Shown here in pieces: positions 12,931-52,800 of a stretch of 64,000 bases of DNA. A program made the translations under genes and the position numbers. How positions within the stretch are numbered: position 1 is the first letter of the stretch; every line of letters starts with the position of its first letter. Under the pieces are notes generated by a model. The model did no database searches and was not told the DNA's origin. It saw only the letters and a list, made by a program, of their open reading frames with translations. The DNA is from Dehalococcoidia bacterium (lineage in GTDB: Bacteria; Chloroflexota; Dehalococcoidia; UBA2979): NCBI GenBank assembly GCA_965262725.1, contig OZ253555.1, positions 2,432,001 to 2,496,000 on the forward strand, written 5' to 3'.

Positions 12931-14589
12931 CCCTGATCCACCGAAGAAGAGTGCGCGAGCGTCTGCGGTTGGGTGCTCCGCTGTAGCTGGGACAATGGTT
13001 TTTGAACGAATCACGTCACAGCCACAGGGAGCACCCATTCGATGCTAGCAACGAGCAGCCCCGACCGGATACACATCGCCTTCGACGACGACCGCCTCGT
13101 GGACCACGCGGGCCTGCTGCTCCCGGCCACGCTCGCTGGCCGGCTCGGCCTCCGTGAACTGGCAGACGCCCACCTCGACCTCGGTGACGCAGCGGGGCGG
13201 GCGAACGTCGGCGACAAGCTGATGACTCTCATCGCCTCGGCGCTCGCGGGCGGCGACTGCATCGATGACGCCGATGCCATGCGCTCAGGCGGCGCCGGGC
13301 GCGTGCTCGGCTGCACCGTGAAGGCGCCGTCCACCCTCGGGACCTTCCTGCGCAGCTTCCGTTGGGGCCACGTCCGTCAGCTCGACCGCGTCAGCCGCGA
13401 GTTGCTGGCCCGCAGCTGGGCGGCCGGGGCGGGACCCGGCGCGGCGCCGTTCACCATCGACCTCGACTCGACGCTCTGCGAGACCTACGGCCTCGCCAAG
13501 GAGGGCGCCCGGCACCACGGCTACACGGGCGTGCGCGGCTATCACCCGCTGCTCGCGGTGGCGGCCGGGACGGGTGAGGTGCTGATGGCGCGGCTGCGCG
13601 GGGGCCGTGCCAACACCGCTCGGGGGGCCGCACACTTCCTGCGTGAGACGGTGGCGCGGGTGCGCGACGCCGGGGCCTCGGGGCAGCTCACGCTGCGCGC
13701 CGACAGCGGCTTCTACAGCCACGCTGTCGTCGCCGCCTGCCGCAAGCAGGATGTCCGCTTCTCCATCACCATTCGCCAGCAGCCGAACGTACGCACGCTG
13801 ATCGAGGCGATACCGGAAGAGGACTGGACGCCGATCCCGTACTGGCTGCCGGGCGGCGCCGCTGTCGCCGAGACGACCTACACGCCGTTCCAGCACACGG
13901 GGGACGCCACTGCGGTGCGGCTCATCGTGCGGCGCGTCACGCCGACGCCCGGGTCACAGCTCGCGCTCTTCGTGGACTACAGTTACCACGCCTTCATCAC
14001 CAACCGCGCGGGGGAGATGATGGAGCTGGAGGCCGACCATCGCCGTCACGCCGAGATCGAGAACGCGATCCGCGACCTCAAGTACGGCGTCGGGTTGAAC
14101 CATCTCCCCTCGGGCCGCTTCGCCGCGAACGCGGCGTGGCTCGCGGTGCAGGTGATCGCGCACAACCTCGCCCGCTGGACGGCGCGCCTCGGGCTCGGCG
14201 AGGGAATCATGACGACCAGGACGCTCAGGCGGCGCTACTTCTCTCTCGCCGGACGGCTCACCCGCTCTGCCCGGCGGTGGACTCTGCACCTCCCGAAGCG
14301 CTGGCCCTGGGCAGAGCAGCTGGCAGCCGCGCTCGCGCGACTACGGGCGATACCGCTCCCGGCCTGACGCCCGCTCACAGCGCCGACCCGGGTCCGAGGC
14401 TCGCGCCAGCATGCCCGCCCACGCCTCGCGCACCCTCGCGCCCGCACCCTCAGCGCCCCCGAGCGGTGCTGAGCGACGGCTCCTGGCTCCGGCCCGCCCC
14501 CGGCGCCGCCCGGCGAACGCCGGCACGCCCGCCGAACTCTCCGGCAGCCCGGCACCCCGCCTCGTCAAGCTTCGATCGGTGGATTCGAG
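12931..14589 (+). mobile_element. IS1380-family element, copy 1; 5-bp TSD CTAAG
   Basis: Ends CCCTGATCCACCGAA...TCGGTGGATTCGAG; CTAAG at 12926-12930 and 14590-14594. Confidence 0.95.
13042..14367 (+). CDS. IS1380 transposase (DDE_Tnp_1_4)
   Basis: IDLDST, GYHPL, RADSGF, HRRHAEIENAIRDLK, FAANAAW. Confidence 0.95.
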   Translation: MLATSSPDRIHIAFDDDRLVDHAGLLLPATLAGRLGLRELADAHLDLGDAAGRANVGDKLMTLIASALAGGDCIDDADAMRSGGAGRVLGCTVKAPSTLGTFLRSFRWGHVRQLDRVSRELLARSWAAGAGPGAAPFTIDLDSTLCETYGLAKEGARHHGYTGVRGYHPLLAVAAGTGEVLMARLRGGRANTARGAAHFLRETVARVRDAGASGQLTLRADSGFYSHAVVAACRKQDVRFSITIRQQPNVRTLIEAIPEEDWTPIPYWLPGGAAVAETTYTPFQHTGDATAVRLIVRRVTPTPGSQLALFVDYSYHAFITNRAGEMMELEADHRRHAEIENAIRDLKYGVGLNHLPSGRFAANAAWLAVQVIAHNLARWTARLGLGEGIMTTRTLRRRYFSLAGRLTRSARRWTLHLPKRWPWAEQLAAALARLRAIPLPA

Positions 14590-22550: not shown

Positions 22551-25500
22551 CTACGGTGCCCCCGCGGTCGCGCCCGCCGCGCTCACGCCGTCGCTCTTCA
22601 CGATCAGGGGCGAGGTGGCGGGGAGGCCGTCTGTGAACAACGCGCGGAAGGACCGATTCACGAAGTCCGGGGCACCGAGGATGTAGGGGACGTAGCCACC
22701 TTCGTCGAGGGCGTAGATGGCCGTGATGTTGCGGCTCTCCGCGCAGGTCGTTAGTTCCTCGATCGCACCGCCCTGGTAGAGGACGAGGCTGAAGCCCGTG
22801 GCGACCGTGCCGCGCAGGCACTCCGGCCAGGGCGGCGCCGGCCCATCGCCCGTGATGCTCCCGGCGGGATCGGCTGTGGGCGGCCCGTCGCTCTTGATGA
22901 TGAGGGGCGTGGTGGCGGGGACGCCGTCTGCGAACAGCTCGCCGAAGGAGCTGTTCACGAACTCGGGTGCACCGAGGATGTACGGCACGTAGCTTCCGTC
23001 GTGCAGGGTGTAGAGGGCCGTGCCGTGGCGGCTCTGAGCGCAGTCCACCAGCTCCTCGACGCTGCCGCCCGCGTAGACCACCAGGCTGAACCCGAGCGCG
23101 ACGGCGCCCCGGAAGCACGGGGGCGCGGGAGCGCTCGGGGCCTCCTGCGCCGGATCGCCGACCAGCACGCGGTAGACGCGCTCGCGGCTCTCGTCGCGGG
23201 AGGTGACGGTGACGGTGATCTCGGAGACCTCTTCCAGCGCGACCTGGTGGCCGTTCTCCGGATCCCCGTCGTCGTCGGCGTCGTCGGGCTCGATGAGGAC
23301 CGTCGCTCCCGACTGCGCCGCCTCCGCCCCGACCGTGGTCTCGGTGACGTCGTCCCCGGCCGTCCCGGCGTACTCTGCCTGGGCACTGTCGAACTCGCCG
23401 AAGTCGACACCGCTGAGGGTGAGCGAGGCGAGGCGGGCGTCGATGGCGTCCGGCATGTTGTAGGTGTAGACCTTGCCGTCGCTCTGGTCGGCGACGTACA
23501 TGACGTCGCCGTCGGACCAGAGACCGCGGGGGCTGTTGTTGCTGGCGCCGGAGAGTTTCTTGAACTCCTCGTCCGTGACACGTTCGAGCTCGAGGTTCTC
23601 TTCCTCGTCCGCGACGTCCTCGTCCGCGCTCGTGTCCTCCTCCTCGAGGGCGGGCAGGCGGTAGGCGAAGAGACGCTTGTCGTTGTGGTCGGAGACCCAG
23701 ACGCCGACGCCGTCGGACCAGATGCCGTGCGGGTCGTCGTTGTCGGAGTCGAGGGCGTACTCGGCGAGCAGCGTGCCACCGGCGAGGTCGTAGCTCGAAT
23801 CCACCGAACGAAGCTTGACGAGGCGGGGTGCCGGGCTGCCGGAGAGTTCGACGGGTGTGTCGGCGTTCGCCGGGCGGCGCCGGGGGCGGGCCGGAGCCAG
23901 GAGTCGTCGCTCAGCGCCGCTCGGGGGCGCTGAGGGTGCGGGCGCGAGGGTGCGCGAGGCGTGCGCGGGCATGCTGGCGCGAGCTTCGGCTCCGGTTCGG
24001 CGCTGTGAGCGGGCGTCAGGTCGGGAGCGGTATCGCCCGTAGTCGCGCGAGCGCGGCTGCCAGCTGCCCGGCCCAGGGCCAGCGCTTCGGGAGGTGCAGG
24101 GTCCACCGCCGGGCAGAGTGGGTGAGCCGTCCGGCGAGAGAGAAGTAGCGCCGCCTGAGCGTCCTGGTCGTCACGATCCCCTCGCCGAGCCCGAGGCGTG
24201 CCGTCCAGCGGGCGAGGTTGTGCGCGATCACCTGCACCGCGAGCCACGCCGCGTTCGCGGCGAAGCGGCCCGAGGGGAGATGGTTCAACCCGACGCCGTA
24301 CTTGAGGTCGCGGATCGCGTTCTCGATCTCGGCGTGACGGCGATGGTCGGCCTCCAGCTCCATCATCTCCCCCGCGCGATCGGTGATGAAGGCGTGGTAA
24401 CTGTAGTTCACGAAGAGCGCGAGCTGTGAGCCGGGCGTCGGCTTGACGCGCCGCACGATGAGCCGCACCGCGGTGGCGTCCCTCGTGTGCTGGAACGGCG
24501 TGTAGGTCGTCTCGGCGACAGCGGCGCCGTCGTCCTGCCAGTACGGGATCGGCGTCCAGTCCTCTTCCGGTATCGCCTCGATCAGCCGGCGTACGTTCGG
24601 CTGCTGGCGAATGGTGATGGAGAAGCGGACATCCTGCTTGCGACAGACGGCGACGACAGCGTGGTTGTAGAAGCCGCTGTCGGCGCGCACCGTGAGCTGC
24701 CCGCTCGCCCCGGCGTCGCGCACCCGGCCCACCGTCTCACGCAGGAAGTGGGCGGCCCCCCGAGCGGTGTTGGCACGGCCCCCGCGCAGCCGGGCCATCA
24801 GCACCTCACCCGTCCCGGCCGCCACCGCGAGCAGCGGGTGATAGCCGCGCACGCCCGTGTAGCCGTGGTGCCGGGCGCCCTCTTTCGCCAGTCCGTAGGT
24901 CTCGCAGAGCGTCGAGTCGAGGTCGATCGTGAACGGTGCCGCGCCGGGTCCCGCCCCGGCCGCCCAACTGCGGGCCAGCAACTCGCGGCTGACGCGGTCG
25001 AGCTGGCGGACGTGGCCCCAGCGGAAGCTGCGCAGGAACGTCCCGAGGGTGGACGGCGCCTTCACCGTGCAGCCGAGCACGCGCCCGGCGCCGCCTGAGC
25101 GCATGGCATCGGCGTCATCGATGCAGTCGCCGCCCGCGAGCGCCGAGGCGATGAGAGTCATCAGCTTGTCGCCGACGTTCGCCCGCCCCGCTGCGTCACC
25201 GAGGTCGAGGTGGGCGTCTGCCAGTTCACGGAGGCCGAGCCGGCCAGCGAGCGTGGCCGGGAGCAGCAGGCCCGCGTGGTCCACGAGGCGGTCGTCGTCG
25301 AAGGCGATGTGTATCCGGTCGGGGCTGCTCGTTGCTAACATCGAATGGGTGCTCCCTGTGGCTGTGACGTGATTCGGTCAAAAACCATTGTCCCAGCTAC
25401 AGCGGAGCACCCAACCCCAGCCGCTCGCGCACTCTTCTTCGGTGGATCAGGGCGTAGGCGAAGAGGGCGTCGCGGCGGCCATCGAGTACCCACATCGTCG

Positions 25501-27319
25501 AGCCGTCGGCCCAGATGCCGCGCGGGTCGGCGTTGTCGGGGTGCAGCGCGAGGTCGGAGTCGGGCAGGCGCTCGCCGCTCTCGAGGTCGTGGGCGAAGAG
25601 CTTTTCCTTGCCGCTGTCGGAGATCCAGATGGTTGAGCGGTCCGACCAGACGCCACGAGGCGCGAGGTCGGCGTCATCGAGCTCGAACTCGAGCTCCTGG
25701 ACGCGCTCGCCGCTCTCGAGATCGTAGGCGTAGAGGGCGTCGTCGGCGCCGTCGCCGTTCTCGATGAGCCAGAGCGTGGCGCCGTCGGACCAGGCGCCGG
25801 TAGGTGAGCCGTGGTCGCGGTCGAGTTCCTCGATGTCGCGTGTGATGTTCCACTCGAAGTCCTCGTCGCTCGGCGTTGGGCCGGACGGTCCGCCGCCGCC
25901 ACCACCGCCCCCGGTGATGATCGGCCTGGGGGGTGCGTTGCCAAGCACCGTGACGACGACCGTCGCCGTGGCGGAGGCACCGGCGGTGTCGGTCACCGTG
26001 AGGGTGAGCGTGACCTCTCGATCGCCGACACCGGCCGCGGGCGCGGTCCAGACAGTGTGGAGGGCCCGGTCGTTCGTGAAGGTTCCCCCGCCGTCGCTGG
26101 TCCAGGCGTACGTCAGGGCGTTGTTCTGTGGGTCGCTGGCCGTGCCGTCCAGGACGACCGCCCCGCCTCCGGGCATGGTACTCGTCGAGGCCATGGCGGA
26201 GACCGTCGGCGTCGTGGTCGTCGTGTCGATGACCGTTACGACGACAGTCGGGATGTGCACGGCGTCGTACCCCCCGCCGGAGGCGGTGTGACGGACAAGT
26301 GATACGTCGTCCTGGTGGTCGTCGTCTGCAGCGGCGGAGACCAGGAACGTCCTCTCCCTCGAGTAGTCCTGGGGCGTGAAGGTCAGCGTGATCGGCGCCA
26401 CGGTCACGTCCGGATCTTCTGGCAGTGGTGTGACGGTCACGGGGCCGCTCGGCTGCACAAGCAGCCGCAATGTATAGGCGGCGGGCGGCCCTCCCTCATC
26501 GACACGGCGAAGCCCCGGTGTCAGCGTGACAGCGGGCTCTGGCCTGGTGCCTGGAGACCGCCGGCAGAACTCATCCGACCAGGGACCGACCTCACCGTTG
26601 TTCAAGTCCAGCCTCGCCACCACACAGTAGAGCGTGCCGGGCTGAAAACCACCCGCTAATGTGTACAGCGAACTGGGGACCACCTTCCCGAGAGCGGACA
26701 GGTAGAACCAGGTACCCCTGGTTCCCCATTGCTCACGGTCGACCTCGTCGCTGTAGGCCTTCACGTTATATCGGCTCAGAGGCTTGCTACCCGGGGCATC
26801 GTGCGGCGGGATGTGTTGCCAGAGGCCCGGCGGGGCGTGGGGCTCCCACTGGACCGTCAAACTATTGCGCCAGAATATCCGGGTCTTCGTGATCTTCAGC
26901 GTGTTCTCCTCGGAGGCGGGAATCACGGGTAGCCCGTGGGATCGGGAGTACGTGCCATCGCTCGCGGTGAGCGTGCAGGAGCCGGGCTGCGCGTCTGCTG
27001 ACACTGACGCGGTGATGTCCCAGGCTGCCCAACCCTGGGTGGCCAGGTCAGCCGCGAGTACCGCCGTGACGGCTTCTTCGTAGTCAATCTCGACTCCGTC
27101 AGGGCAGTCGGAGTGGCTGAGCGTGACGGTGTCCCCGACCACAAACCCCTTGACGATCGCGGTCGTGGACTGATTGTCCCGGCCGATGACGATCGGCTTC
27201 AGCGTGTAGAAGTAGTGGCTGTGCGCCGATGCCGTGCGAGGCTGCTCTAGGTCCGACGCGAGTGCGAGGGCCGCGATCGTTGCCAGCAGGAATAGGGTGC
27301 CGTGGGCCCTCCATGACAT
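22551..27319 (-). pseudogene. secreted surface protein (FN3/Calx/PKD-like N-terminus, poly-Gly hinge, shared C-terminal module) interrupted by IS1380
   Basis: Signal peptide from ATG 27319, hinge IITGGGGGGGGPSGPTPS, GIWSDG repeats. Removing the IS and one CGTAG restores LFAYDLAGG. Confidence 0.85.
23794..25452 (-). mobile_element. IS1380-family element, copy 2; TSD CGTAG; transposase 24016-25341
   Basis: Ends CTCGAATCCACCG...GGTGGATCAGGG; CGTAG at 23789-23793 and 25453-25457. Confidence 0.95.
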
Positions 27320-38107: not shown

Positions 38108-39811
38108 CGCGCTAGACGCTCACTGATATCAAGCCGCCTACCGGCGTCCCGGGTGGTCTAATCTCGAATCCACCGAACGAAGCTTGACGAGGCGGGGTGC
38201 CGGGCTGCCGGAGAGTTCGACGGGTGTGTCGGCGTTCGCCGGGCGGCGCCGGGGGCGGGCCGGAGCCAGGAGCCGTCGCTCAGCACCGCTCGGGGGCGCT
38301 GAGGGTGCGGGCGCGAGGGTGCGCGAGGCGTGGGCGGGCATGCTGGCGCGAGCTTCGGCTCCGGTTCGGCGCTGTGAGCGGGCGTCAGGTCGGGAGCGGT
38401 ATCGCCCGTAGTCGCGCGAGCGCGGCTGCCAGCTGCCCGGCCCAGGGCCAGCGCTTCGGGAGGTGCAGGGTCCACCGCCGGGCAGAGTGGGTGAGCCGTC
38501 CGGCGAGAGAGAAGTAGCGCCGCCTGAGCGTCCTGGTCGTCACGATCCCCTCGCCGAGCCCGAGGCGTGCCGTCCAGCGGGCGAGGTTGTGCGCGATCAC
38601 CTGCACCGCGAGCCACGCCGCGTTCGCGGCGAAGCGGCCCGAGGGGAGATGGTTCAACCCGACGCCGTACTTGAGGTCGCGGATCGCGTTCTCGATCTCG
38701 GCGTGACGGCGATGGTCGGCCTCCAGCTCCATCATCTCCCCCGCGCGATCGGTGATGAAGGCGTGGTAACTGTAGTTCACGAAGAGCGCGAGCTGTGAGC
38801 CGGGCGTCGGCTTGACGCGCCGCACGATGAGCCGCACCGCGGTGGCGTCCCTCGTGTGCTGGAACGGCGTGTAGGTCGTCTCGGCGACAGCGGCGCCGTC
38901 GTCCTGCCAGTACGGGATCGGCGTCCAGTCCTCTTCCGGTATCGCCTCGATCAGCCGGCGTACGTTCGGCTGCTGGCGAATGGTGATGGAGAAGCGGACA
39001 TCCTGCTTGCGACAGACGGCGACGACAGCGTGGTTGTAGAAGCCGCTGTCGGCGCGCACCGTGAGCTGCCCGCTCGCCCCGGCGTCGCGCACCCGGCCCA
39101 CCGTCTCACGCAGGAAGTGGGCGGCCCCCCGAGCGGTGTTGGCACGGCCCCCGCGCAGCCGGGCCATCAGCACCTCACCCGTCCCGGCCGCCACCGCGAG
39201 CAGCGGGTGATAGCCGCGCACGCCCGTGTAGCCGTGGTGCCGGGCGCCCTCTTTCGCCAGTCCGTAGGTCTCGCAGAGCGTCGAGTCGAGGTCGATCGTG
39301 AACGGTGCCGCGCCGGGTCCCGCCCCGGCCGCCCAACTGCGGGCCAGCAACTCGCGGCTGACGCGGTCGAGCTGGCGGACGTGGCCCCAGCGGAAGCTGC
39401 GCAGGAACGTCCCGAGGGTGGACGGCGCCTTCACCGTGCAGCCGAGCACGCGCCCGGCGCCGCCTGAGCGCATGGCATCGGCGTCATCGATGCAGTCGCC
39501 GCCCGCGAGCGCCGAGGCGATGAGAGTCATCAGCTTGTCGCCGACGTTCGCCCGCCCCGCTGCGTCACCGAGGTCGAGGTGGGCGTCTGCCAGTTCACGG
39601 AGGCCGAGCCGGCCAGCGAGCGTGGCCGGGAGCAGCAGGCCCGCGTGGTCCACGAGGCGGTCGTCGTCGAAGGCGATGTGTATCCGGTCGGGGCTGCTCG
39701 TTGCTAACATCGAATGGGTGCTCCCTGTGGCTGTGACGTGATTCGGTCAAAAACCATTGTCCCAGCTACAGCGGAGCACCCAACCCCAGCCGCTCGCGCA
39801 CTCTTCTTCGG

Positions 39812-41728
39812 TTCGCGGTAGGGATGCCGGTTGCCCGGCACCCCCCGCACAGATCCGGACGTGCCCTCTCGGGCATCCGGCTCCTACCTCAAGTGCGTGA
39901 CGGCAAATCGCTCCGCAGGCCACGGGTGAAGGATGGAGATTCGGGGCCAGTGTTTCTGGCACAGGGCAAGGATGCGCTCCCACGTGAAACGGTCGCGCTG
40001 CGACCGCCGTCGGAGAACGCGCAGCCAGAGCCGCTTCACGAAACGAACAAACTGCGTGAGCGCCGGCGAGCTGGTCGGCACCGCGTAGTAGCCAAGCCAC
40101 CCACGCAGTACCCGCCCCAGCCACTGCCCCGTCGTCACGGGGTTGTCGTGCATGCGCCGCCACAACTCGGCCTTGATGGCCTTCAGCGTCCGGCGCATCC
40201 GCTTCGCAACGGGCTTGCGCCCCAGCCCGAATCTCCCGTCGCGTCGGGTCCGGCAGTAGTGCGTCATGCCGAGAAAGTCGAACGTCTCCGGTCGGCCCTC
40301 CCCGCGCTTCCGCCTGTTCGCCAGCGCGAACCTGCCGAACTCAAGTAGACGGGTCTTCTCCGGGTGCAGCTCCAGCCCGTAGGCCGCGAACCGCTCCCGG
40401 AGTGCCTCCATGAACCGCACCGCATCGCTGCGGTGCTGGAACCCCAGGACGAAGTCATCGGCATACCGCACGATGTACGCCTCGCCCCGGACCTCCCGCG
40501 GTCGCCACTCGCGCGCAAACCAGTCGTCGAGCACGTTGTGCAGGTACACGTTCGCAAGCAGCGGCGATATCGGCGCCCCCTGCGGCATCCCCCGCACGAA
40601 ATCGACTTCCGGCTCCGCGTCCATGACGCCGACGCTCAGCCACTTTCGTATCAGGCGCAACACCCGCTGGTCCCCGATGCGCATCTCCAGAAACGACATC
40701 AGCCGCCCCCGGTCGATGCTGCCGAAGAACTCCCGGATGTCCACCTCGACAATCCAGCTGACCTTGCGCCGTTCGACCGCGTAGGCCAGTGCGTCCAGCG
40801 CGTCATGCGCCGAACGCCCCGGCCTGAAGCCATGCGAGAAGCCGTAGTAGCCCGACTCGTAAATCGGGTTCAAAAGATTGTCCACCACCGCCCGCTGAAC
40901 GATCTTGTCCTCCAGCGAGACGATACCGAGCGGCCGTATTCCCCCGTCCGGCTTGGGTATCTCTACCCGCCTGACGGGCTTCGCCCGGTACGCTCCACGG
41001 TGTACGCGGCCATGCAGGTCGAGCAATCGCTCGTCCAGCCCGTCCCCGTATTCTCGCCACCTCACCCCGTCCACGCCCGGAGCCGCATCCCGCTTCAACG
41101 CGAGATACGCCTCCCGCAGCGCCTCCGGCGTGATGTGGTGCAAGAGCGCGGTGAGTTTCTCTCCCGGCTTCCGTTCCACGAACTGCCGTATCCTCTCCGC
41201 TCCGGGTGACACCGCACCCCGACTCTGCGTCCGGACCGTGCCGGTGCTTTGAGGATTCCTCTCGGTTGGGGCCCTTTGCTCCAGCGACTCCGCCGGGGCT
41301 CGCGCCCCCTTGTTCGCCGCCTTCATCGCTCGTACGGCCCCATCAGACTGCTGCGCATCGTGCATCATCGGCTACGGTTTACGTCCCTTCCCGACGCGGT
41401 CCCGGCGTACGACTCGTCGGGACAACGCGCAGCTCTCCCAAGTCCCGGCGATAGACGTGTGTGCGTGCATGGGGTCTTCGACACCGTGGGGCCCGACCAC
41501 GACTCGCCAGTAGCGCCGTCGCCGGTATTGCCTTCGACCAATCCAAGAGCCTCGGCACCCCAAATGGCCCTTTCGATGCTCATTAGCCCCGCCCGCACAC
41601 CCCGCTGCCGACGCTTCACAAGCCGCCTCGCGACGACCCGCGCACGGCTCGCGGAATGACATGAGTGGCTAGCTCTTTGCCATAGAGGACTTCCACCTCC
41701 TGCCTACTCGCCAGTTAGCCTGGCGCTC
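39812..41728 (-). mobile_element. group II intron, copy 1 (1917 nt)
   Basis: 5' GAGCG, domain V/VI GAGCCGGATGCCCGAGAGGGCACGTCCGGATCTGTGCGGGGG...CCCTACCGCGAA. Boundaries defined by the empty IS1380 ends. Confidence 0.95.
39884..41368 (-). CDS. ltrA: group II intron reverse transcriptase/maturase (no HNH domain)
   Basis: APGVDG, IPK.DG..RPLGI...DKIVQ, SHGFRPGRS.HDA, PQG.PISPLLAN, RYADDF, FDFLG. Confidence 0.95.
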   Translation of the reverse strand: MMHDAQQSDGAVRAMKAANKGARAPAESLEQRAPTERNPQSTGTVRTQSRGAVSPGAERIRQFVERKPGEKLTALLHHITPEALREAYLALKRDAAPGVDGVRWREYGDGLDERLLDLHGRVHRGAYRAKPVRRVEIPKPDGGIRPLGIVSLEDKIVQRAVVDNLLNPIYESGYYGFSHGFRPGRSAHDALDALAYAVERRKVSWIVEVDIREFFGSIDRGRLMSFLEMRIGDQRVLRLIRKWLSVGVMDAEPEVDFVRGMPQGAPISPLLANVYLHNVLDDWFAREWRPREVRGEAYIVRYADDFVLGFQHRSDAVRFMEALRERFAAYGLELHPEKTRLLEFGRFALANRRKRGEGRPETFDFLGMTHYCRTRRDGRFGLGRKPVAKRMRRTLKAIKAELWRRMHDNPVTTGQWLGRVLRGWLGYYAVPTSSPALTQFVRFVKRLWLRVLRRRSQRDRFTWERILALCQKHWPRISILHPWPAERFAVTHLR

Positions 41729-42148
41729 TGGATCAGGGCTAATGACCGTGGCGACGCGTGGCTCAATGACCCTGGCGATCGACACTCTCCGAGCAGCACG
41801 ACGAATGGGCCGTCGGGCGGCGCTACATGACGATGATGACGCTGCTCTCCCCGCCGGGGAGTGAGCTCACGTCAGGCAAGGAGGTGCTGCTGCAGGCTGC
41901 CGGCTAACAAATGATAAGGATGGTGCACTGTGACACCACTTGCCGGGACGTGACCGCCGCCTGAGCCTCGGGCGCATCGCCACCTGCCAGCTCACCTCTG
42001 ACCCCGCGTGCTCCGGGCGCTTCTCCGCTCCCCGGTAGGCGGCATCGCCCCACACCGGGGCCCGCGGACTTGCGACCTGGGCAGCGGCATTGCTATGCTG
42101 CCTAATACAAGGCACATAGCTAGATGGTAATGCGACAGGGTACTGCTC

Positions 42149-42382
42149 ATGATCGAGTCTGGAATCACCTCGAAGGGACAGACCACATTGCCACGAGCAG
42201 TGCGCGATGCGCTCTGCCTGCACGCTGGTGATCGGGTGCGCTACCTCATCCAGGATGGGGAAGTCAGGATCCTGCCGGTACGCCCCATCGCACGGCTCTT
42301 TGGCGTACTACGGCATGACGGCCCGGCCGCGACCCTGGACGACATGGAACGCGCCGTCGTCGATGGGGCCACCGACGCGTGA
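42149..42382 (+). CDS. AbrB/MazE-family antitoxin
   Basis: ITSKGQTTLPRAVRDAL.L.AGD. Confidence 0.9.
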   Translation: MIESGITSKGQTTLPRAVRDALCLHAGDRVRYLIQDGEVRILPVRPIARLFGVLRHDGPAATLDDMERAVVDGATDA

Positions 42383-42780
42383 TTGCCGTCGACACGAACG
42401 TCGTCGTGCGATATCTCGTGGCCGACCATGCTGAGCAGGCAGATGCAGCTCGGGCATTACTGGAGCGGTTGACGCCTGAGCGCCCAGGCTTCATCTGCCG
42501 CGAGGTCGCACTTGAGGTTGTCTGGGTACTGGAGCGGGCCTACGGGTTCACGCGCGTCCAGATCGCAGACGTTCTCATGGAGTTGATCGCCACCGACAGC
42601 ATTGTTGTGGAGGCCGCGGACGACATGGCCCGTGCGGTCTATGCCTATCGCCAGGGTGGTGTCGGCTTCGCGGACCTCATGATCCTCTCAGCGGCTGAGC
42701 GGGAGGGAGCTGCACCCCTCCACACCTTCGACCGCCAGCTTGCGCGGATGAACACGGCGGTCCTTGTGGAGAAGCGGTAG
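42379..42780 (+). CDS. vapC: VapC-family PIN toxin
   Basis: IAVDTNVVVRYL, E..WVL, FAD.MI, TFD; overlaps the antitoxin stop. Confidence 0.9.
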   Translation: MIAVDTNVVVRYLVADHAEQADAARALLERLTPERPGFICREVALEVVWVLERAYGFTRVQIADVLMELIATDSIVVEAADDMARAVYAYRQGGVGFADLMILSAAEREGAAPLHTFDRQLARMNTAVLVEKR

Positions 42781-43192
42781 GAGCGCACCCAGACCGACCG
42801 ATGCCCAGAGGCCGTGGCCGGTCGTAGGTGCCGCCTGCAGAGACCGTCTCCCTGCTTGTGACACCACTTCTCGGGACGCTACTCGACGCGCTCACGACCC
42901 TGAGATCATCAGCGACCAGCTCTACCGGAGGCTGAACATGCTATTCCGTCGCAAGGGCTGGCATCGCGACGAACCGGTCGAGTACAAGCGGGATGAGTCA
43001 CCAACACTGCTGAGGCGGCTCGTGCTGCGGGCACGGACATGATGGGGTGGGATGGGGAACGACGGCCGAGGCCCCGGCTAGGTGTCTGGGGGCTGTACGC
43101 GTGACCGCCTTGACAAAAATCGTGGGGACAGGAGGGTAGCGCCACGTTCCGGCGCCGGGATGGCGTGGTCGTGCGAGTCTCGGGAGGAACCG

Positions 43193-43780
43193 ATGGCTGT
43201 GGAACTCACTCTGACCCAGCTGGTGCGCAACGGCACGATGTCTCCAGAGATGGCGGACACGCTCATCGTGGCCGCCCGGTCGCGGTCCTCGCTTCTGTTC
43301 TTCGCCGGGCCGCGGCTCGCGGGCAAGACGACGACGCTGCGCGCGACCCTCGCGTACGTGCCCGAGGGCACGCCGGTCCACGAGGTCTCGGCCGACGAGC
43401 CGGACCTCGGCATCCCGGCGCAGCCGGACGGCGGCTACCTGCTCGTGCACGAGTTCGCGGAGACACCGGTCTTCCCGACCTACATCTGGGGCGAGCCGGT
43501 GCGGCGCGTGTTCGATGCGCTGGCGACCGGGGGCCTCTCGCTGGCGGCGGCCACGCACGCCGACTCCCTGGAGGAGGCCTTCGACAAGATCGCGGCGAAC
43601 AGCGTGCCGGACGAGCAGGCCGGGCTGATCGACTACGCCGTCCACATCCGCAGCCTCGGCGACTGGCGTGAGCCGACCCGGCGCGTGGTCGCGGCGCTGT
43701 ACCAGCTGCGCCCCGACCGCGAGGCGAGGCTGCTGCATCTCTGGGACGAGGCGACCAACCGCTTCGAAGTGATGACGTAG
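43193..43780 (+). CDS. small VirB11/CpaF-like P-loop ATPase
   Basis: LV.NGTM, GPRLAGKTTTL, LLVHE, ATHADS; GGAGG RBS. Confidence 0.65.
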   Translation: MAVELTLTQLVRNGTMSPEMADTLIVAARSRSSLLFFAGPRLAGKTTTLRATLAYVPEGTPVHEVSADEPDLGIPAQPDGGYLLVHEFAETPVFPTYIWGEPVRRVFDALATGGLSLAAATHADSLEEAFDKIAANSVPDEQAGLIDYAVHIRSLGDWREPTRRVVAALYQLRPDREARLLHLWDEATNRFEVMT

Positions 43781-43992
43781 ATGATGACGCGAGCACTCCA
43801 CCACTTTATGTGGAGTTCCGAGCCTGGCTACTACAGCCCAGGACCTCCAGGCTCGCGGGACGGACCTACGGTAGTTCCGGCGACCGCGGGTCGCGCCCCG
43901 CTCTACGCAGCCCGTGCCCGTGGCAGCGACACGACGAGCGCGACGCCCGCCCCGGTGCCGCCTGCTGCACCTGGCCGTTAAGCCCGAATCCA

Positions 43993-45909
43993 GAGCGCCA
44001 GGCTAACTGGCGAGTAGGCAGGAGGTGGAAGTCCTCTATGGCAAAGAGCTAGCCACTCATGTCATTCCGCGAGCCGTGCGCGGGTCGTCGCGAGGCGGCT
44101 TGTGAAGCGTCGGCAGCGGGGTGTGCGGGCGGGGCTAATGAGCATCGAAAGGGCCATTTGGGGTGCCGAGGCTCTTGGATTGGTCGAAGGCAATACCGGC
44201 GACGGCGCTACTGGCGAGTCGTGGTCGGGCCCCACGGTGTCGAAGACCCCATGCACGCACACACGTCTATCGCCGGGACTTGGGAGAGCTGCGCGTTGTC
44301 CCGACGAGTCGTACGCCGGGACCGCGTCGGGAAGGGACGTAAACCGTAGCCGATGATGCACGATGCGCAGCAGTCTGATGGGGCCGTACGAGCGATGAAG
44401 GCGGCGAACAAGGGGGCGCGAGCCCCGGCGGAGTCGCTGGAGCAAAGGGCCCCAACCGAGAGGAATCCTCAAAGCACCGGCACGGTCCGGACGCAGAGTC
44501 GGGGTGCGGTGTCACCCGGAGCGGAGAGGATACGGCAGTTCGTGGAACGGAAGCCGGGAGAGAAACTCACCGCGCTCTTGCACCACATCACGCCGGAGGC
44601 GCTGCGGGAGGCGTATCTCGCGTTGAAGCGGGATGCGGCTCCGGGCGTGGACGGGGTGAGGTGGCGAGAATACGGGGACGGGCTGGACGAGCGATTGCTC
44701 GACCTGCATGGCCGCGTACACCGTGGAGCGTACCGGGCGAAGCCCGTCAGGCGGGTAGAGATACCCAAGCCGGACGGGGGAATACGGCCGCTCGGTATCG
44801 TCTCGCTGGAGGACAAGATCGTTCAGCGGGCGGTGGTGGACAATCTTTTGAACCCGATTTACGAGTCGGGCTACTACGGCTTCTCGCATGGCTTCAGGCC
44901 GGGGCGTTCGGCGCATGACGCGCTGGACGCACTGGCCTACGCGGTCGAACGGCGCAAGGTCAGCTGGATTGTCGAGGTGGACATCCGGGAGTTCTTCGGC
45001 AGCATCGACCGGGGGCGGCTGATGTCGTTTCTGGAGATGCGCATCGGGGACCAGCGGGTGTTGCGCCTGATACGAAAGTGGCTGAGCGTCGGCGTCATGG
45101 ACGCGGAGCCGGAAGTCGATTTCGTGCGGGGGATGCCGCAGGGGGCGCCGATATCGCCGCTGCTTGCGAACGTGTACCTGCACAACGTGCTCGACGACTG
45201 GTTTGCGCGCGAGTGGCGACCGCGGGAGGTCCGGGGCGAGGCGTACATCGTGCGGTATGCCGATGACTTCGTCCTGGGGTTCCAGCACCGCAGCGATGCG
45301 GTGCGGTTCATGGAGGCACTCCGGGAGCGGTTCGCGGCCTACGGGCTGGAGCTGCACCCGGAGAAGACCCGTCTACTTGAGTTCGGCAGGTTCGCGCTGG
45401 CGAACAGGCGGAAGCGCGGGGAGGGCCGACCGGAAACGTTCGACTTTCTCGGCATGACGCACTACTGCCGGACCCGACGCGACGGGAGATTCGGGCTGGG
45501 GCGCAAGCCCGTTGCGAAGCGGATGCGCCGGACGCTGAAGGCCATCAAGGCCGAGTTGTGGCGGCGCATGCACGACAACCCCGTGACGACGGGGCAGTGG
45601 CTGGGGCGGGTACTGCGTGGGTGGCTTGGCTACTACGCGGTGCCGACCAGCTCGCCGGCGCTCACGCAGTTTGTTCGTGTCGTGAAGCGGCTCTGGCTGC
45701 GCGTTCTCCGACGGCGGTCGCAGCGCGACCGTTTCACGTGGGAGCGCATCCTTGCCCTGTGCCAGAAACACTGGCCCCGAATCTCCATCCTTCACCCGTG
45801 GCCTGCGGAGCGATTTGCCGTCACGCACTTGAGGTAGGAGCCGGATGCCCGAGAGGGCACGTCCGGATCTGTGCGGGGGGTGCCGGGCAACCGGCATCCC
45901 TACCGCGAA
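43993..45909 (+). mobile_element. group II intron, copy 2 (1917 nt)
   Basis: Near-identical inverted copy of 39812-41728; flanks TTAAGCCCGAATCCA | CCGATCGA. Confidence 0.95.
44353..45837 (+). CDS. ltrA: group II intron reverse transcriptase/maturase
   Basis: 494 aa with YADD; one visible difference from copy 1 (FVRFVK versus FVRVVK). Confidence 0.95.
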   Translation: MMHDAQQSDGAVRAMKAANKGARAPAESLEQRAPTERNPQSTGTVRTQSRGAVSPGAERIRQFVERKPGEKLTALLHHITPEALREAYLALKRDAAPGVDGVRWREYGDGLDERLLDLHGRVHRGAYRAKPVRRVEIPKPDGGIRPLGIVSLEDKIVQRAVVDNLLNPIYESGYYGFSHGFRPGRSAHDALDALAYAVERRKVSWIVEVDIREFFGSIDRGRLMSFLEMRIGDQRVLRLIRKWLSVGVMDAEPEVDFVRGMPQGAPISPLLANVYLHNVLDDWFAREWRPREVRGEAYIVRYADDFVLGFQHRSDAVRFMEALRERFAAYGLELHPEKTRLLEFGRFALANRRKRGEGRPETFDFLGMTHYCRTRRDGRFGLGRKPVAKRMRRTLKAIKAELWRRMHDNPVTTGQWLGRVLRGWLGYYAVPTSSPALTQFVRVVKRLWLRVLRRRSQRDRFTWERILALCQKHWPRISILHPWPAERFAVTHLR

Positions 45910-46265
45910 CCGATCGACGCCTGTAGCGGCTGCACCTCCGGGGAAACAGGTTCAGCGGCTGCATCCCATGGGGATTGCGGTGTGTCCTTCTCAGGCGCGC
46001 TCGCGATAGCGACTGTGAGCAGTTCCGCCTGCCCATCTGCGACGGAGCCAGGGCGGCCGCGTGGACGCAGGCAACGACGGTTTCGGGACGTACCTTGACC
46101 CGCTCACACTCCGCACAGTTGCCGACCTTCTGGCCACGACCGCCGAATCACGCGCCAGGGGCAAGAGGCGCTGCGCGGCTTGCGGCTTCTTCCTTCGAGG
46201 GCCCCACCATCTGCTCAGTGCTCATGCAGTCCGCGGGCCTCGTGAATGACCACCCCCGCCGCCGC

Positions 46266-49200
46266 CTACGGCGCTCCCGCGGTCGCGGCCGCCGGGCTCA
46301 CGCCGTCGCTCTTCACGATCAGAGGCGTGATGGCGGGGAGGCCGTCCGTGAACAACGCGCGGAAGGACCGGTTCACGAACTCCGGGGCACCGAGGATGTA
46401 GGGGAAGTAGCCGCCGTCGTGCAGGGTGTAGATGGCCGTTATGTCGCGGCTCTCCGCGCAGGTCACGAGTTCCTCGATCGCACCGCCCTGGTAGAGGACG
46501 AGGCTGAAGCCCGTGGCGACCGTGCCGCGCAGGCACTCCGGCCAGGGCGGTGTCGGGTCATCGCCCGTGATGCTGCCGGCGGGATCGGCTGTGGGCGGCC
46601 CCTCGCTCTTGACGATCAGGGGTGTCGTGGCGGGGACGCCGTCTGCGAACAGCTCGCCGAAGGAGCTGTTCACGAACTCGGGTGCACCGAGGATGTAGGG
46701 CACGTAGCCGCCGTCGTGCAGGGTGTAGAGGGCCGTGCCGTGGCGGCTCTGCGCGCAGTCCACCAGCTCCTCGACACTGCCGCCCGCGTAGACGACCAGG
46801 CTGAAGCCGAGCGCAACGGCACCCCGGAAGCACGGGGGCGCAGGGCCGTCCGGGACCTCCTGCCCCGGATCGCCGACCAGCACGCGGTAGACGCGCTCGC
46901 GGCTCTCGTCGCGGGAGGTGACGGTGACGGTGATCTCGGGGACATCTTCCAGCGCGACCTGGTGGGCGTTCTCCGGGTCGTCGTCGTCGTCGTCGTCGGG
47001 TTCGATGAGGATCGCCGCTCCCGACTGCGAGGCCTCCGCCCCGACCGTGGTCTCGGTGACGTCGTCCCCGGCCGTCCCGGCGTACTCCGTCTGGGCGCTG
47101 TCGAACTCCCCGATGTCGACGCCGCTGAGCTCGAGCGTGGCCAAGCGCGCGTCGATCGCGTCGGGCATGTTGTAGGTGTAGACCTTGTCGTCGCTCTGGT
47201 CGGCGACGTACATGACGCCCCCGTCCGACCAGAGACCGCGGGGGCTGTTGTTACTGGCGCCGCTCAGCTTCTTGAAGTCCTCATCGCTGACGCGCTCGAG
47301 TGCACTGTGCTCGTCGGGTTCCTCTCCGTCGGGCAGCGCAGGCAGCCGGTAAGCGAGGAGCCGCTTGGCCACGTGGTCGGAGACCCATACGCCGACGCCG
47401 TCGGACCAGATGCCGTGCGGGTCGCCGCTGGAGGAGTCGAGGGCGTACTCGCCGAGCAGGTCGCCGCTCTCGAGGTCGTAGGCGAAGATGCTGTCCTTCC
47501 CACCGTCGAGCGCCCACATCGTCCCATCGGCGGACCAGATGCCGCGCACGTCGCGGTTGCGCTCGGCGAGTGCGAGGTCGCGTTCGGGGAGGCGCTCGCC
47601 GCTCTCGAGGTCGTGGGCGAACAGCTTCTCCTGGCCACTGTCGCTGATCCAGATGACCGTCCGGTCGGACCAGACGCCGCGGGGGGCGCGGTTGCGCTCA
47701 TCCAGCTCGAACTCGCGCTCCTCGATGCGTTCGCCGGTCTTGGGGTCGTAGGCGTAAACCGCGTCGCCCGCACCGTCCGAGTTGTCGGCGATCCAGAGCG
47801 TCGTGCCATCGGACCACAGGCCGGTCGCCTTGTCATTGCCGCCGTCGAGCTCCTCGATGTCGTGCTCGACCGTCCACTCGAAGTCGGCCTCGCTCGAAGT
47901 CGGCCTCGCTCGGGGTCGGGCCACGCGAGCCGCCCCCGCCGCCTCCTCCTCCGAAGATGATCGGTGGCCTGATCACCTGGTTCGGATCTGTGACAGTGAC
48001 TCCCGCGTCCAACGTTCCGGTCCGCGTTCCCCGATCGCCGTCGGAGGAAGCGCTGACGGTGACCTCATACGTGTTGTCGCCGTTGGTGTCGGCCGGATTA
48101 TCGAAGTCGGGCACGGCGGTGAAGCTCAGGTCTCCGGCATCGGAGAACTCGAAGTGTTGTGCGTCCACGCCCGAAAGCGGCTCCCAGCTTGTCACGAATC
48201 CTTCCGGGTCGGTTGCGCCGTAGCGGCCCACGTAGGCCGTGGTGCCGCCCCGGACCTTCACACTGGTGGGCCCAGCGATGACGGGAGGCTCGTCAACGTC
48301 ATTGATGACAACGGTGACGCGGAATACCGCGCTGTTCGACCCATCGGACGCATGTATGGTCACCTCATACACGTTGTTCCGACCGGCGTCCCTCGGGTCC
48401 TCATAGTCCCCGGCGGAATCGAAATTGAGCACGCCGTCGGCGATGCTGAAGAAGCTTGCATCAGGACCCGAGAGCGACCAGGTAATGGTGTCGCTCTCGG
48501 GATCGGTCGCGATATACGTTTCTACGTCCCTTGGGTTGGTCTCAAAGAAGCTTGGCGCCGCCTTTCCTGAGACGACCGGCCCCACGTTGAGGTTGGTGCC
48601 GCTGACTGTCACCTCAGTCGAAGGAGTGCCCGCGCCGACTGCATTTCGTGCGAGCACGCGCACGGTGTACGTACTGCTCGCGCTCAGTCCGGCGACGGTA
48701 TGGGAAGTTGTGGTCACCTCCGCCTCGGAGACATGGGATGCGACGCCCCAACTTCCAGACGCCAACTTCCATTGCACCGTGTAGCCGGTGATCTCTGAAC
48801 CGCCGTCTCCAACGCTGAACGTTCGGTCGAGGTCGAGCCAGCAGTCGAAGACAACGGTGAAGTCACAAACCGCAGGGGTCGACCAGCTCAGGTCAAGCTC
48901 GCCGGGGTCACCCAGTGAGCCGCTCAGGTCCGGTGGCGCGTCCGGCGCCACAGCCGCGACGGTGCTTGTCGCCTGTACATCAAGGGATTCGCTGTTGCCT
49001 TGGTCGTCGTCGAAGTGCGCCTGCACTTTGATTGTCAGCCCGGCGTCGTACGGCGCGAGCGCGTACTCGTTGATAGACGTCGCGGCCCGGAAAAAGGCGC
49101 CCTCCTCGAGGAGGTCATCATCCGCGAACCAGGTGTAACTGAACTCGGTGTCCGTGAGCCCGTCGGCGTCGGCGATCGAGGAAGTGTCCACACGTGCGAC

Positions 49201-49368: not shown

Positions 49369-49838
49369 TCAACTCGTTCCCCTCGAGCGTTCGCGGAGTC
49401 GGCCCCAAATCTGGTCGATGCAGGGGAACGACCCCGCTGCGCGAGGTGCTCCCCTCGTGTCCAGTGATGGGACCGTTCCTGCGAAGACCAGTCGCACGCG
49501 TGAGAGCCACGAAGGGAGCATGATGCGCCCCATCACCGTTGCCGCTTACGCGGGAGCACGGTTCTTCGGAGGAACAAGGGGGACTTAGCGCATCCGAGCA
49601 CGAGTGCGCATCCGCCGCGTCGGAGCCCACGCCCCACCTGGGCAGCCACCGGCGCGCCGGTGTGCCTCGCGAGCGCCGGGCCAGCGCTTGCATCGAGAGG
49701 TGCAGTCTCACGTAGATGAGCGTTTGGACCGTATGGGACTGAGGCGAGTCCCTCCAGCCATCCCCGGCGTCGCCAGTCGCCCCGAGGTCCGCCGCGTCCT
49801 AGCGGTTCCGTACTTGGCCGCCTCAGCCGGCATGTGCT

Positions 49839-52800
49839 CTAGTTCTCCGCCGCGTTGCCGCTGTCGGCGCTGGCTGTGAGCGGCGAGTCGCTCTTGGCCA
49901 CCAGTGGCGTCAGGGCGGGCAGACCGTCGGTAAACAGCTCGAAGAACGAGCGATTCACAAAGTCCGGAGCACCGAGGATGTAGGGGAAGTAGCTGCCTTC
50001 GTCGAGCGCGTAGAGGGCCGTGATGTTGTGGCCCTGCGCGCAGGTCGCGAGTTCCTCGAGCGAACCGCCCTGGTAGAGGACGAGGCTGAAGCCCGTCGCA
50101 ATCTCGCCGTGCAGGCAGCTCGACCCCCGCAGCGTTGCGAGCTCATCCTCTGGGGGTCGGTCGACGGCGGTATCCGCGCTCGGCGGCCCGTCGCTCCCGG
50201 CGACGAACGGCGTCAAGGGCAAGACGCCATCCGCATACAACTCCTGGAAGGAACGATTCACGAATTCAGGCGCGCCGACGATGTAGGGCACGTAGACGCC
50301 GTCATCCAACACGTAGAGGGCCACGATGTGCCTGCTCAGGGCGCAGACCAGCAGGTCCTCGATACTGCCTCCTTCGTAGATGACGAGGCTGAAGCCGGCG
50401 GCCACATCCCCGCGGAAGCAATGGGATGTGGGCCCGCTCGCGGCTGTCGGCTCTGGGTCGCGGAGCCGGACGCGGTAGACGAGCTCGCGGCTGCCATCCG
50501 CCGACATCACCGTCACCGTGATCTCGCTCGTTCCCTCGAGGGCGACCTGATGGCCCTCCGCCTCCTCGTCGGCATCCGGCGGGTCGATGTCGACACTCGT
50601 ACGGCGCTGTAGCGCCTCCGCGGTGACCGTCGTTTCCGTGACACCGTCGCCGCCAGTGCCCCGGTAGTCCGTCCGGACTGGCAGGAACTCCCCGAGCTCG
50701 ACGCCGCTCAGAGTGAGGGACGCGAGGCGGGCGTCGATGGCATCGGGCATGTTGTAGGTGTAGACCTTGTCGTCGCTCTCATCGGCGACGTACATCACGT
50801 CGCCGTCGGACCAGATGCCGCGCGGGCTGTTGTTGCTGGCCTTCGACAGCTCCTTGAACTCCTCGTCAATGACGCGCTCGAGGTCCTGCGGTTCCGCGTC
50901 TTCGGCCGCGGGTTCCTCGGGTGCGGGCAAGCGGTAGGCGAGGAGCCGCTTCGCTCCATCGTCGGAGACCCAGAACGTAGTGCCGTCCGACCAGATGCCG
51001 TGGGGGTCGCCGTTGGTGCTGTCGAGGGCGTACTCGGCGAGCAGCTCGCCGCTCTCCAGGTTGTAGGCGAAGAGCGCATTCTTGCCGCCATCCAGCACCC
51101 ACATCGTCGCGCCGTCGGACCAGATGCCGCGCGCATCGCGGTTGCGGTCCGCGAGTTCGATGTCGCGCTCGGGGAGGCGCTCGCCAGTCGCGAGGTCGTG
51201 AGCGAAGAGGTGATTCTGGCCGCTGTCGGAGACCCACGCCGTCTCGCCGTCGGACCAGATGCCGCGCGGCGCTCGGTTGCGTTCGTCGAGCTCGAACTCG
51301 CGGCCCTCGACGCGTTCGCCGCTCTCGAGGGCGTAGGCGTAGATCGCGTCGTCGGCGCCGTCGCCGTTCTCCAGCAGCGACAGGGTCACGCCGTCGGACC
51401 ACAGGCCCGAGGGCTTGTCGTGACCGCCGTCGAGTTCGTCGATGTCGTGCGTCACGTTCCACTCGAAGTCGAGGAGACTCGGGCTGGGGCCGGAGGGACC
51501 ACCGCCGCCGCCGCCGCCGGTGATGATCGGAGGTCCTACCGGGCCGGCTGTGACGGTGATGGTCACCTCGACGGTCGCGCTGCCGCCATTGCCGTCTGAA
51601 GCGTCGACCGTGAGGGTGTACGTGTTCTTCGTCGCGATGTCGAAGGTAACCCCGCCGCCGACCGTGATCTGACCATCCTGCCGGTCGATCTCGAACGAAG
51701 ACGCGTCGGCGCCGTAGCGGCTGTACGTGAGCGTGTCGCCCCCGTCGACGTCCGTCGCCGTCACGGGCGCGCCGACCCTGGCGCCAGCCTCCGCGCTTTC
51801 GGACACGGAGCGCGCGGGCATGGACTCGCCGAACGCAGGGGCGTCGTTCACCGCGTCGATCTGGACGGAGACGGAGGCGGTGCTCGAGAGGGACGGGCTG
51901 CCCGTGTCCCGGACGCGGTAGGTGAACGTGTCCGCTCCGTTGTAATCGGCGTTGGGCTCGTACGTGATCGTGCGGTTCTCGCCCGCGTTTGCGGGTTCAT
52001 TGACCGTCACCGCCCCGTTTCGCGGCGCGTTGGGGCCCGAGTTGAACACCGTCAGCAGCAACTCGCTCCGGTCGTCCTCGGGGTCGCTGTCGTTGGCGAG
52101 GACATCGATCCTGATCTCGGTGTCCTCGTCGAAGCTGTTGGGGGCGTCGGCGAGGGCGTCCGGCGGCTCGTTCACATCCGTGACTTCGATGGTGACCTGG
52201 ACGGTGTCAAACGCATTCGAGCTGTCGAGGGCTTTGACGGTGACCGTGTGCGAGGGCGCTGTCTCGTGATCGAGGGCCCCCCGGTTCTTGACCCGGATCT
52301 GGCCGTTGCTGCCGTCAATCGTGAACAGGTCCGGCACGGGCTCGACTTCGTACCTCACCGTGTCGCCGCTGTCGGGATCGGTGGCCGTAACGCGGCCGCC
52401 GACCGGGGCGTTCGCCCCTGCGTTCTCGGCGATGCTGCGGGTCGGGCTCGTCTCCGTGAATGTCGGCGGGTTGTTGGTGACGGGTTTCGCGCGCACCGGG
52501 TTGTTGGAGACGGCGCTACCGCTCTTGTTCGGCCCGTGGCCGTCGGTGTAGGTGGCGGTCGCGCGCAGGTAATCGCCGACGTCACCGGTAACGGGAGTGT
52601 AGACGCTGCTCGTCGCGATGCTGTTCACGGCCCCGCTGACGGCCGTCCAGGGGCCGCTGCGGCTCGTCGAGCGCTCCCACGTCCACGTCGTCGACTGCAC
52701 GCCGTCGGGATCGCTGAGGGTGGCGGTGTAGTCTGCTTCTTCCCGCGGCCGCGTTGCGGGCAGGGCGAGCATCCCCGGCTCTTCCTTGTTCGTGACGGTG

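Follow-up and report, generated by a model that had tools for sequence, protein, structure and literature searches.

A group II intron that very probably homes to the terminal inverted repeats of IS1380-family elements in a Dehalococcoidia-type genome

Introduction

IS4321 and IS5075, insertion sequences (ISs) of the IS110/IS1111 group, insert into the terminal repeats of Tn21-family transposons, and class C (IIC) group II introns, which encode small endonuclease-less (En-less) proteins, are directed to attC sites or to the hairpins of terminators; these introns have no second exon-binding site (EBS2), and what they recognise is a DNA hairpin. Among group II introns that home to ISs, RmInt2 of Sinorhizobium meliloti GR4 is described as homing into both inverted repeats of ISRm17 (PMC4615759). 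This and a second report also describe a tolerance of imperfect pairing between EBS2 and its intron-binding site (IBS2), an unpaired position −11 included, a lagging-strand bias of retrohoming, and the authors' point that inverted repeats double the number of targets and always present one of them on the lagging-strand template (PMC4615759, PMC5894124). RmInt1 sits in ISRm2011-2 and reportedly keeps its IS from spreading (PMC5894124). The intron E.c.I4 homes to IS3-family transposase genes (PMC3522654). Here, we describe a group II intron in a stretch of 64,000 nt (the window; G000:C1:2432001–2496000) of a Dehalococcoidia-type genome, G000 (3.67 Mb, 70.6% GC), where two copies of the intron interrupt ends of IS1380 type. 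An initial annotation of the window had proposed that this intron homes to IS1380 termini and reads the junction between the IS and its target; the proposal was followed through the whole genome and into related genomes.

Results

The intron and its copies in the window

We consider it highly probable that, in this genome, the conserved core of the terminal inverted repeats in IS1380-family elements is the retrohoming target of an En-less mobile group II intron. The two 1917-nt copies in the window had been placed exactly 10 nt inside an IS1380-type end by the initial annotation, and both the coordinates and the flanks bore this out. The features concerned are the following, with endA and endB denoting the two IS ends, TSD the target site duplication and ORF an open reading frame.

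43993..45909, + strand: group II intron copy 2, 1917 nt, 5′ GAGCG, 3′ CCGCGAA
39812..41728, − strand: group II intron copy 1, 1917 nt, with two differences from copy 2
44353..45837, + strand: intron-encoded protein of copy 2, 494 aa, reverse transcriptase (RT) and maturase, YADD
39884..41368, − strand: intron-encoded protein of copy 1, the ORF counterpart of that in copy 2
45836..45910, + strand: putative domains V and VI; the AGC triad can be seen in the sequence, as can a bulged A 7 nt from the 3′ end
12931..14589, + strand: IS1380-family copy 1, 1659 nt, TSD CTAAG, both ends empty
23794..25452, − strand: IS1380-family copy 2, 1659 nt, TSD CGTAG, both ends empty
38163..39811, − strand: body of IS1380-family copy 3, transposase at 38385–39710, endB at 38163 empty
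41729..41738, − strand: tip (CCCTGATCCA, 10 nt) cut off from IS copy 3 at its transposase-proximal repeat, placed by flanks and contig joints
43978..43992, + strand: 5′ half of the solo target of intron copy 2, TTAAG followed by CCCGAATCCA, IS-end-like
45910..45917, + strand: 3′ half of the same solo target, CCGATCGA, IS-end-like

Judged by its RNA and protein features, the 1917-nt element is an En-less group II intron. Each window copy matched RF02005 (group-II-D1D4-6) over the full model (1–225) with 170 bits, the gathering score being 49, and RNAalifold on 11 intron lineages showed compensatory change in 25 of 86 pairs. The intron-encoded protein scored 326.9 bits against TIGR04416, the NCBIfam model of group II intron RT/maturases (cutoff 300), over residues 82–455 of 494. 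Pfam yielded RVT_1 alone, and no endonuclease domain was found in the 494 residues. The closest solved structures in PDB were En-less IIC RTs of 427–428 aa, which aligned to residues 80–451, and relatives of the protein were found in seven Dehalococcoidia metagenome-assembled genome records. The intron opens with GAGCG in place of the usual GUGYG and ends with GAA; its sister lineages open with GUGCG or GAACGG. As the two window copies lie in opposite orientation, they form a 1.9-kb inverted repeat around a 2264-nt spacer (41729–43992), and this segment could flip by homologous recombination.

The host element and its ends

The host IS is 1659 nt long and encodes a transposase of the IS1380 family (NF033539, 338 bits against a cutoff of 180; PF13701, E = 1.5e-58). 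Its tips read C(C/T)C(T/G)(G/A)ATCCACCGA. With the intron site marked by a bar, the transposase-proximal endA reads CCCTGATCCA|CCGAAGAAGAG and endB reads CTCGAATCCA|CCGA(A/T)CGAAGC. The target duplications of the three window copies are of 5 bp (CTAAG, CGTAG and CTAAT). In IS copy 3, intron copy 1 parts the outer 10 nt (41738–41729) from the body (38163–39811), and the duplication CTAAT is intact on both sides, at 38158–38162 and 41739–41743. In contigs of sequencing runs, joints that skip 38158–41738 (3581 nt, 5 shared letters) correspond to the duplication, the IS and the intron together; the high-depth joints from 38157 to 41739 may stem from paralogous copies of the repeated flank and not from alleles, and they were used solely to fix the boundaries of IS and intron. 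The five IS ends in the window that had been listed as unoccupied were confirmed to be empty.

Distribution of the intron in the genome

The whole G000 genome was searched for the main intron family, defined as copies at least 99.5% identical. Fourteen 5′ junctions of this family were found. In 13 of them the insertion point is exactly 10 nt from the tip of an IS1380-family end; the 14th is that of window copy 2, at a solo end-like site. The placement of 13 of 14 junctions in such ends is far beyond chance. Collecting all copies and aligning their flanks had been suggested by the initial annotation as a check on homing to IS1380 terminal repeats, and the outcome upheld it, with the insertion always 10 nt in. 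Both junctions were found for 12 copies, seven of them uninterrupted and five broken by nested ISs; the remainder were two 5′ fragments and a 3′ fragment. Each of the 14 5′ flanks has the form (duplication)-C(C/T)C(T/G)(G/A)ATCCA|, and the 12 3′ flanks were the interior of the matching IS end (seven endA, three endB, one type-2 endB and one solo); one of the seven endA flanks belongs to a second IS type, 82% identical. The intron is always oriented inward from the IS tip.

Type-1 host ISs in G000 are up to 4% apart and the two types differ from each other by 18%, while the seven uninterrupted introns are 0–6 nt apart over 1917 nt. Because near-identical introns sit in diverged ISs, the intron spread after the ISs had diversified and into copies that already existed, and not as the passenger of one composite element. 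The suggestion that transposition of the IS creates new sites for the intron was likewise supported. The census of ends was as follows.

Type-1 endA: 8 empty; 6 occupied, plus two 5′ fragments
Type-1 endB: 15 empty; 3 occupied
Type-2 endA: 1 occupied
Type-2 endB: 2 empty; 1 occupied
Solo sites: 2 empty; 1 occupied

Two further type-2 endA copies, both empty and reading CCCGGATGCA, were excluded from these counts. They lie at G000:C1:316721 and 1853326, and in this tip the pairing with the first intron-binding site (IBS1) is broken; the third type-2 IS (3359601) has an endA tip reading CCCTGATCCA and is occupied. The CCCGGATGCA tip may be an intron-resistant variant of the repeat, or its emptiness may be due to chance.

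Alleles and the order of events

A contig of the public run X1 joins 43991 to 45909, with exactly 1917 nt missing and one shared letter, and it is an intron-less allele of the copy 2 site. One boundary A of the intron can be assigned to either side, in keeping with the single letter shared at this joint. Contigs of runs X9 and X1 also join 44259 to 45864, skipping 1604 nt, with just 24 nt on the shorter side. The joint may come from a derivative of about 313 nt that has lost the ORF, or it may be an artefact contributed by another organism; no copy of such a derivative was found when the whole G000 genome was searched. None of the runs that contain the window was an RNA run.

The intron-less allele bears on the possibility that a single IS variant took up the intron in one repeat and that the two were then dispersed together by transposition, as a composite. 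The intron-bearing ISs have intact duplications and intact transposase frames, which fit either order of events. The near-identical introns reside in host ISs of different subtypes, in endA, in endB, in the 82%-identical second IS type and at a solo site, and an allele exists that lacks the intron alone. Spread as a composite is thus, in our estimate, extremely unlikely.

It was also considered that the family may no longer be mobile and was spread by recombination or duplication of IS-rich segments. The five broken copies among the 12 with both junctions, the two 5′ fragments and the 3′ fragment would fit such a relic, as would the chimeric copies in other genomes and the many good sites that are empty. 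Against this, the 494-aa ORF is unbroken in all seven uninterrupted copies, which retain YADD and differ at no more than 6 of 1917 nt; every copy is bounded by flanks found at no other copy and by a target duplication of its own, and occupancy is polymorphic between samples. We therefore regard immobility as very unlikely and retain retrohoming as the explanation for the distribution.

The solo site of copy 2

The initial annotation had noted that the site of copy 2 resembles the right end of an IS1380 element, and this was found to be so: the 18-mer CCCGAATCCA|CCGATCGA is 1 nt off endB of IS copy 1 and identical to endB of an IS1380 relative in another genome of the order, G077. A partner inverted repeat or a remnant of a transposase was sought beside copy 2 and none was found. 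Two similar solo sites occur elsewhere in G000, both empty. The simplest reading of these sequences is that the copy 2 site is a relic of an IS end.

EBS1 and EBS2

Three segments of domain I were considered for pairing with the target.

44176..44181, + strand: predicted EBS1 (first exon-binding site) UGGAUU, pairing with IBS1 (A/G)AUCCA at −6 to −1
44150..44154, + strand: best EBS2 candidate AGGGC, pairing with GCCCU at −11 to −7 of endA
44131..44139, + strand: segment GGGGCUAAU, a conserved junction in domain I; its G-run forms a helix with about 44247–44250

UGGAUU occupies the 8-nt terminal loop of a domain I hairpin in the Rfam alignment, and RNAalifold on the 11 lineages agreed. Its 3′-terminal U pairs with A or G at −6, so that both IS ends are covered. 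The EBS1 loop of related introns from G000 and other genomes was compared with their own 5′ flanks, and it covaried with IBS1 in six other lineages (EBS1/IBS1 CCCAUU/AAUGGG, UGGUAU/AUGCCA, CUCGCA/UGCGGG, CACCAC/GUGGUG, GUGGAU/AUCCAC and CAGCGA/UCGCUG). The predicted role of UGGAUU as EBS1, which the initial annotation had proposed for TGGATT, is thus confirmed by structure and by cross-lineage covariation with the flanks. A single-sequence fold of 44100–44252 was uninformative (z = 0.5), and the Rfam structure and RNAalifold were used in its place. For EBS3, the +1 bases were compared by eye with the variable positions of the junction segment, and no consistent pattern was seen.

The best EBS2 candidate lies in a loop (44148–44158, AAAGGGCCAUU) that varies in length and sequence and is unpaired in both the Rfam and the RNAalifold structures. 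AGGGC would form three Watson-Crick pairs and one wobble with endB (GCUCG). The same loop offers complementary segments to the targets of five other lineages (GAUGC/GCAUC, GUGGC/GCCGU, UUUGG/CCAGA, GGGUUU/AAGCCC and CUGUC/GACGG), and across seven lineages it covaries with target positions −7 to −13. When the best helix of a segment with the positions upstream of IBS1 was scored over the seven lineages, the variable loop gave a cognate sum of 33.5 against a derangement mean of 24.8, and none of 1854 derangements reached the cognate value.

EBS2 had been placed differently by the initial annotation, in GGGGCUAAU, with pairing over up to 9 nt (AUUAGCCCU) and with four to five bases of the duplication being read. 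The letters GGGGCTAAT do stand at 44131–44139 as it had them; the segment forms nine contiguous pairs with the flank of copy 1, is partly unpaired in the Rfam consensus, and carries in this lineage a U-to-A change (GCUAAU vs GCUAUU in relatives) that would add a pair with T at −13. The G-run, however, lies in a helix with compensatory covariation, in which alignment pair 144–272 is A-U in seven lineages, G-C in four and broken in none (RNAalifold). Moreover, the segment is conserved in the Rfam consensus (GGCcguGcuAUugAGC), lineages whose targets are unrelated keep its GCUA core, and occupied sites show no excess of T at −13 (by reading of the flanks, 7/14 occupied vs 6/14 empty sites with G at −11). 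Its permutation was not significant either (cognate sum 30.5, derangement mean 28.0, 134 of 1854 reaching cognate). Folding of domain I, which had been suggested as a further check, separated the two assignments, with TGGATT in a hairpin loop and the G-run of GGGGCUAAU in a helix. Pairing through GGGGCUAAU is unlikely, EBS2 was probably misplaced, and the AGGGC loop appears to fit better.

The base at −11 and the proposed mechanism

At position −11, immediately beyond the IS tip, a G is found at 13 of 14 occupied sites compared with 14 of 27 empty sites (Fisher p = 0.014); restricted to type-1 ends, the counts are 12 of 12 and 12 of 23, respectively (p = 0.005). Four singly occupied ISs have G at −11 at one end only, and the intron is at the G end in all four. 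Reading of the IS/target junction, as originally proposed, is therefore supported by these flanks for one base, the G at −11, and not for further bases of the duplication, T at −13 showing no enrichment. Among the sites with G at −11, endA was occupied in 8 of 12 and endB in 3 of 11 (p = 0.10), a difference that fits the better EBS2 match of endA.

In the proposed mechanism, the intron RNA would recognise the top strand in two stretches, IBS1 and IBS2. EBS1 UGGAUU would pair with (A/G)AUCCA at −6 to −1 and EBS2, most likely AGGGC, with GC(C/U)C(U/G) at −11 to −7, and reverse splicing of the RNA would take place between A−1 and C+1, at a distance of exactly 10 nt from the IS tip. The base at −11 is the last of the 5-bp target duplication (consensus CTWAG), so that the intron may favour ends where the duplication gives G. 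As the two repeats are inverted, each IS would offer the site on both strands. Synthesis of cDNA may be primed at replication forks, as expected for a protein without an endonuclease, and the split repeat would plausibly disable transposition of that IS copy.

Several observations weigh against this account or parts of it. Many good targets are empty, including the 12 of 23 empty type-1 ends that have G at −11, and in G077 all 10 ends of the five IS copies examined are perfect targets and empty. One occupied site has C at −11. In each window copy the domain V/VI model RF00029 scored 39.9 bits, 0.1 bit short of its gathering score of 40, and G000 is a metagenome-type assembly. The permutation for EBS2 is small, its lineages were picked after inspection and three of the seven share the target GCCC; the nine contiguous bases of GGGGCUAAU that are complementary to the copy 1 flank may mean that this segment acts as an auxiliary contact in this lineage. 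As for a bias towards the lagging-strand template, 10 of 14 copies are co-directional with the fork movement inferred from GC skew (p = 0.09, with a flat skew in the terminus region), and 5 of the 14 empty sites with G at −11 are in the favourable orientation; the relation to replication is no more than suggestive.

Related introns and nested elements

Among the 99 genomes of the order, 10 (one of them G000) gave a match to domain I. A single copy of this lineage, 93% identical over domain I, is present in G077 and another in G004; their 5′ flanks are TAAG-CCCTGATCCA| and TTAG-CCCGAATCCA|, respectively, and their 3′ flanks are typical of other intron lineages. As the two flanks belong to different lineages, these copies are taken as recombinant chimeras. 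G077 has nine full-length IS copies, 88–91% identical. In G078 and G079, a lineage with 72–73% identity over domain I sits at T(A/T)AG-CCCTGATCCAC|, 11 nt inside the same end; its EBS1 is GUGGAU and its 3′ flank is not IS sequence. Chimeric copies at loci L049 and L052, in other genomes, also show that introns recombine.

A second lineage was observed in G000 itself (C1:1921202, 1951740 and 2020545), 81% identical over the first 284 nt, with 5′ GUGCG, EBS1 CCCAUU and EBS2 GAUGC. It is inserted in three IS1380 copies in antisense orientation, where it parts the ribosome-binding site from the transposase start codon and lies 8 nt ahead of the ATG (equivalent to 39718|39719 in the window). A lineage of other genomes with EBS1 UGGUAU (L033–L036, L039, L053 and L055) starts 3 nt past the last aligned base of an IS110-type element, which is 74–91% related to the IS110 of G000 but has a different flank; the sequences on either side are the same in seven intron copies, and a further copy, L037, is ectopic. 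This lineage seems to home to the junction between the IS110 terminus and its target. The 3′ flank of the L033 lineage was tested as an antisense intron fragment and showed no homology.

Nesting was also seen in the other direction. A 1551-nt IS110-family element of G000 (NF033542, "RNA-guided transposase", 217 bits against a cutoff of 140) has four full-length copies, all inside group II introns and at the same position (about 415–417, in the N-terminal part of the ORF).

G000:C1:337678–339228, 3305833–3307383, 3505961–3507511 and 1954818–1956368: IS110 copies in introns (loci L009, L010 and L008)

Three of them are in the main intron family at different IS1380 ends, and one is in a diverged intron lineage. 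Either IS110 is guided to intron sequence, or composite introns were mobilised in trans. The non-coding region of this IS110 matched no Rfam family and no bridge RNA model was found; a literature search for a link between IS110 and introns, limited to titles, returned nothing relevant. At G000:C1:1949797–1950190, an IS1380 copy lies inside a main-family intron at about position 387, beside CTGAT, with the intron truncated; here the usual nesting is reversed. A further IS, which has a 361-aa ORF and at least six copies genome-wide, breaks two intron copies near intron positions 855–884 (G000:C1:1876117–1877442 and 1522774–1524987).

These lineages raise the tentative possibility, on balance a doubtful one, that a Dehalococcoidia intron clade radiated onto IS termini and that IS1380, the intron and an RNA-guided IS110 are engaged in a three-way contest. 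The radiation would rest on four lineages, at the IS1380 repeat 10 nt in, at the same repeat 11 nt in, at the transposase start and at the IS110 end; the contest in the other direction would rest on IS110 in introns, IS1380 in an intron and the empty CCCGGATGCA variant.

Other repeats in the window

Families of 300-nt repeats with 62–92% identity were observed at 22541–23566, 25549–25848, 46256–47872 and 49838–51457. They connect three regions with very long ORFs, such as 49839–57884 on the − strand (2681 aa). These regions are a repeated large-protein gene family without relation to the intron.

Discussion

With 14 near-identical sites filled and 27 empty, G000 offers a naturally occurring record of occupancy, from which one recognition position outside the IS, −11, can already be resolved. 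The nested IS110, intron and IS1380 make a compact natural system for competition among mobile elements, and with them one could ask if a retroelement can be made the target of an RNA-guided IS110 transposase.

A literature search, judged largely by titles, found no report linking group II introns with IS1380 ends, and PMC13055272 proved unrelated to such a link. The strategy itself is already in print for RmInt2 and ISRm17, so that the initial annotation overrated its novelty; what is new here is the IS1380 family and the Dehalococcoidia-type host. IS4321 and IS5075, like this intron, are specialists for terminal inverted repeats that belong to another mobile element, but they are DNA transposase elements, whereas the intron is a retroelement that would find its target by RNA pairing. 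The IIC introns share with it an En-less protein, and IIC RTs are the best solved relatives of this protein; unlike them, it has a candidate EBS2 and a linear sequence target. RmInt1 and E.c.I4, like this intron, have homing sites in ISs, and their copy number tracks that of the IS. Their sites, however, lie in the IS body or transposase gene, one per IS, whereas those of this intron lie in the terminal repeats.

The likeness is greatest with RmInt2. Both introns are En-less, are present in several near-identical copies, occupy IS inverted repeats at both ends and tolerate imperfect EBS2/IBS2 pairing, including at −11. They differ in that RmInt2 is a class D intron with a 419-aa protein in an alpha-proteobacterium and was tested by assay, while the present intron has a 494-aa ORF and an Rfam D1D4-6 match in a Dehalococcoidia-type genome and is known from sequence alone. 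ISRm17 is an ISNCY element and the host here is of the IS1380 family, and with the site of this intron 10 nt from the IS tip, recognition would cross into the duplication. Homing to IS inverted repeats would thus have arisen in a phylum far removed from that of RmInt2, where both the IS family and the intron lineage are different. The same habit in so distant a host suggests that RmInt2 is not a one-off, and homing to IS repeats looks like a recurrent solution for endonuclease-less introns.

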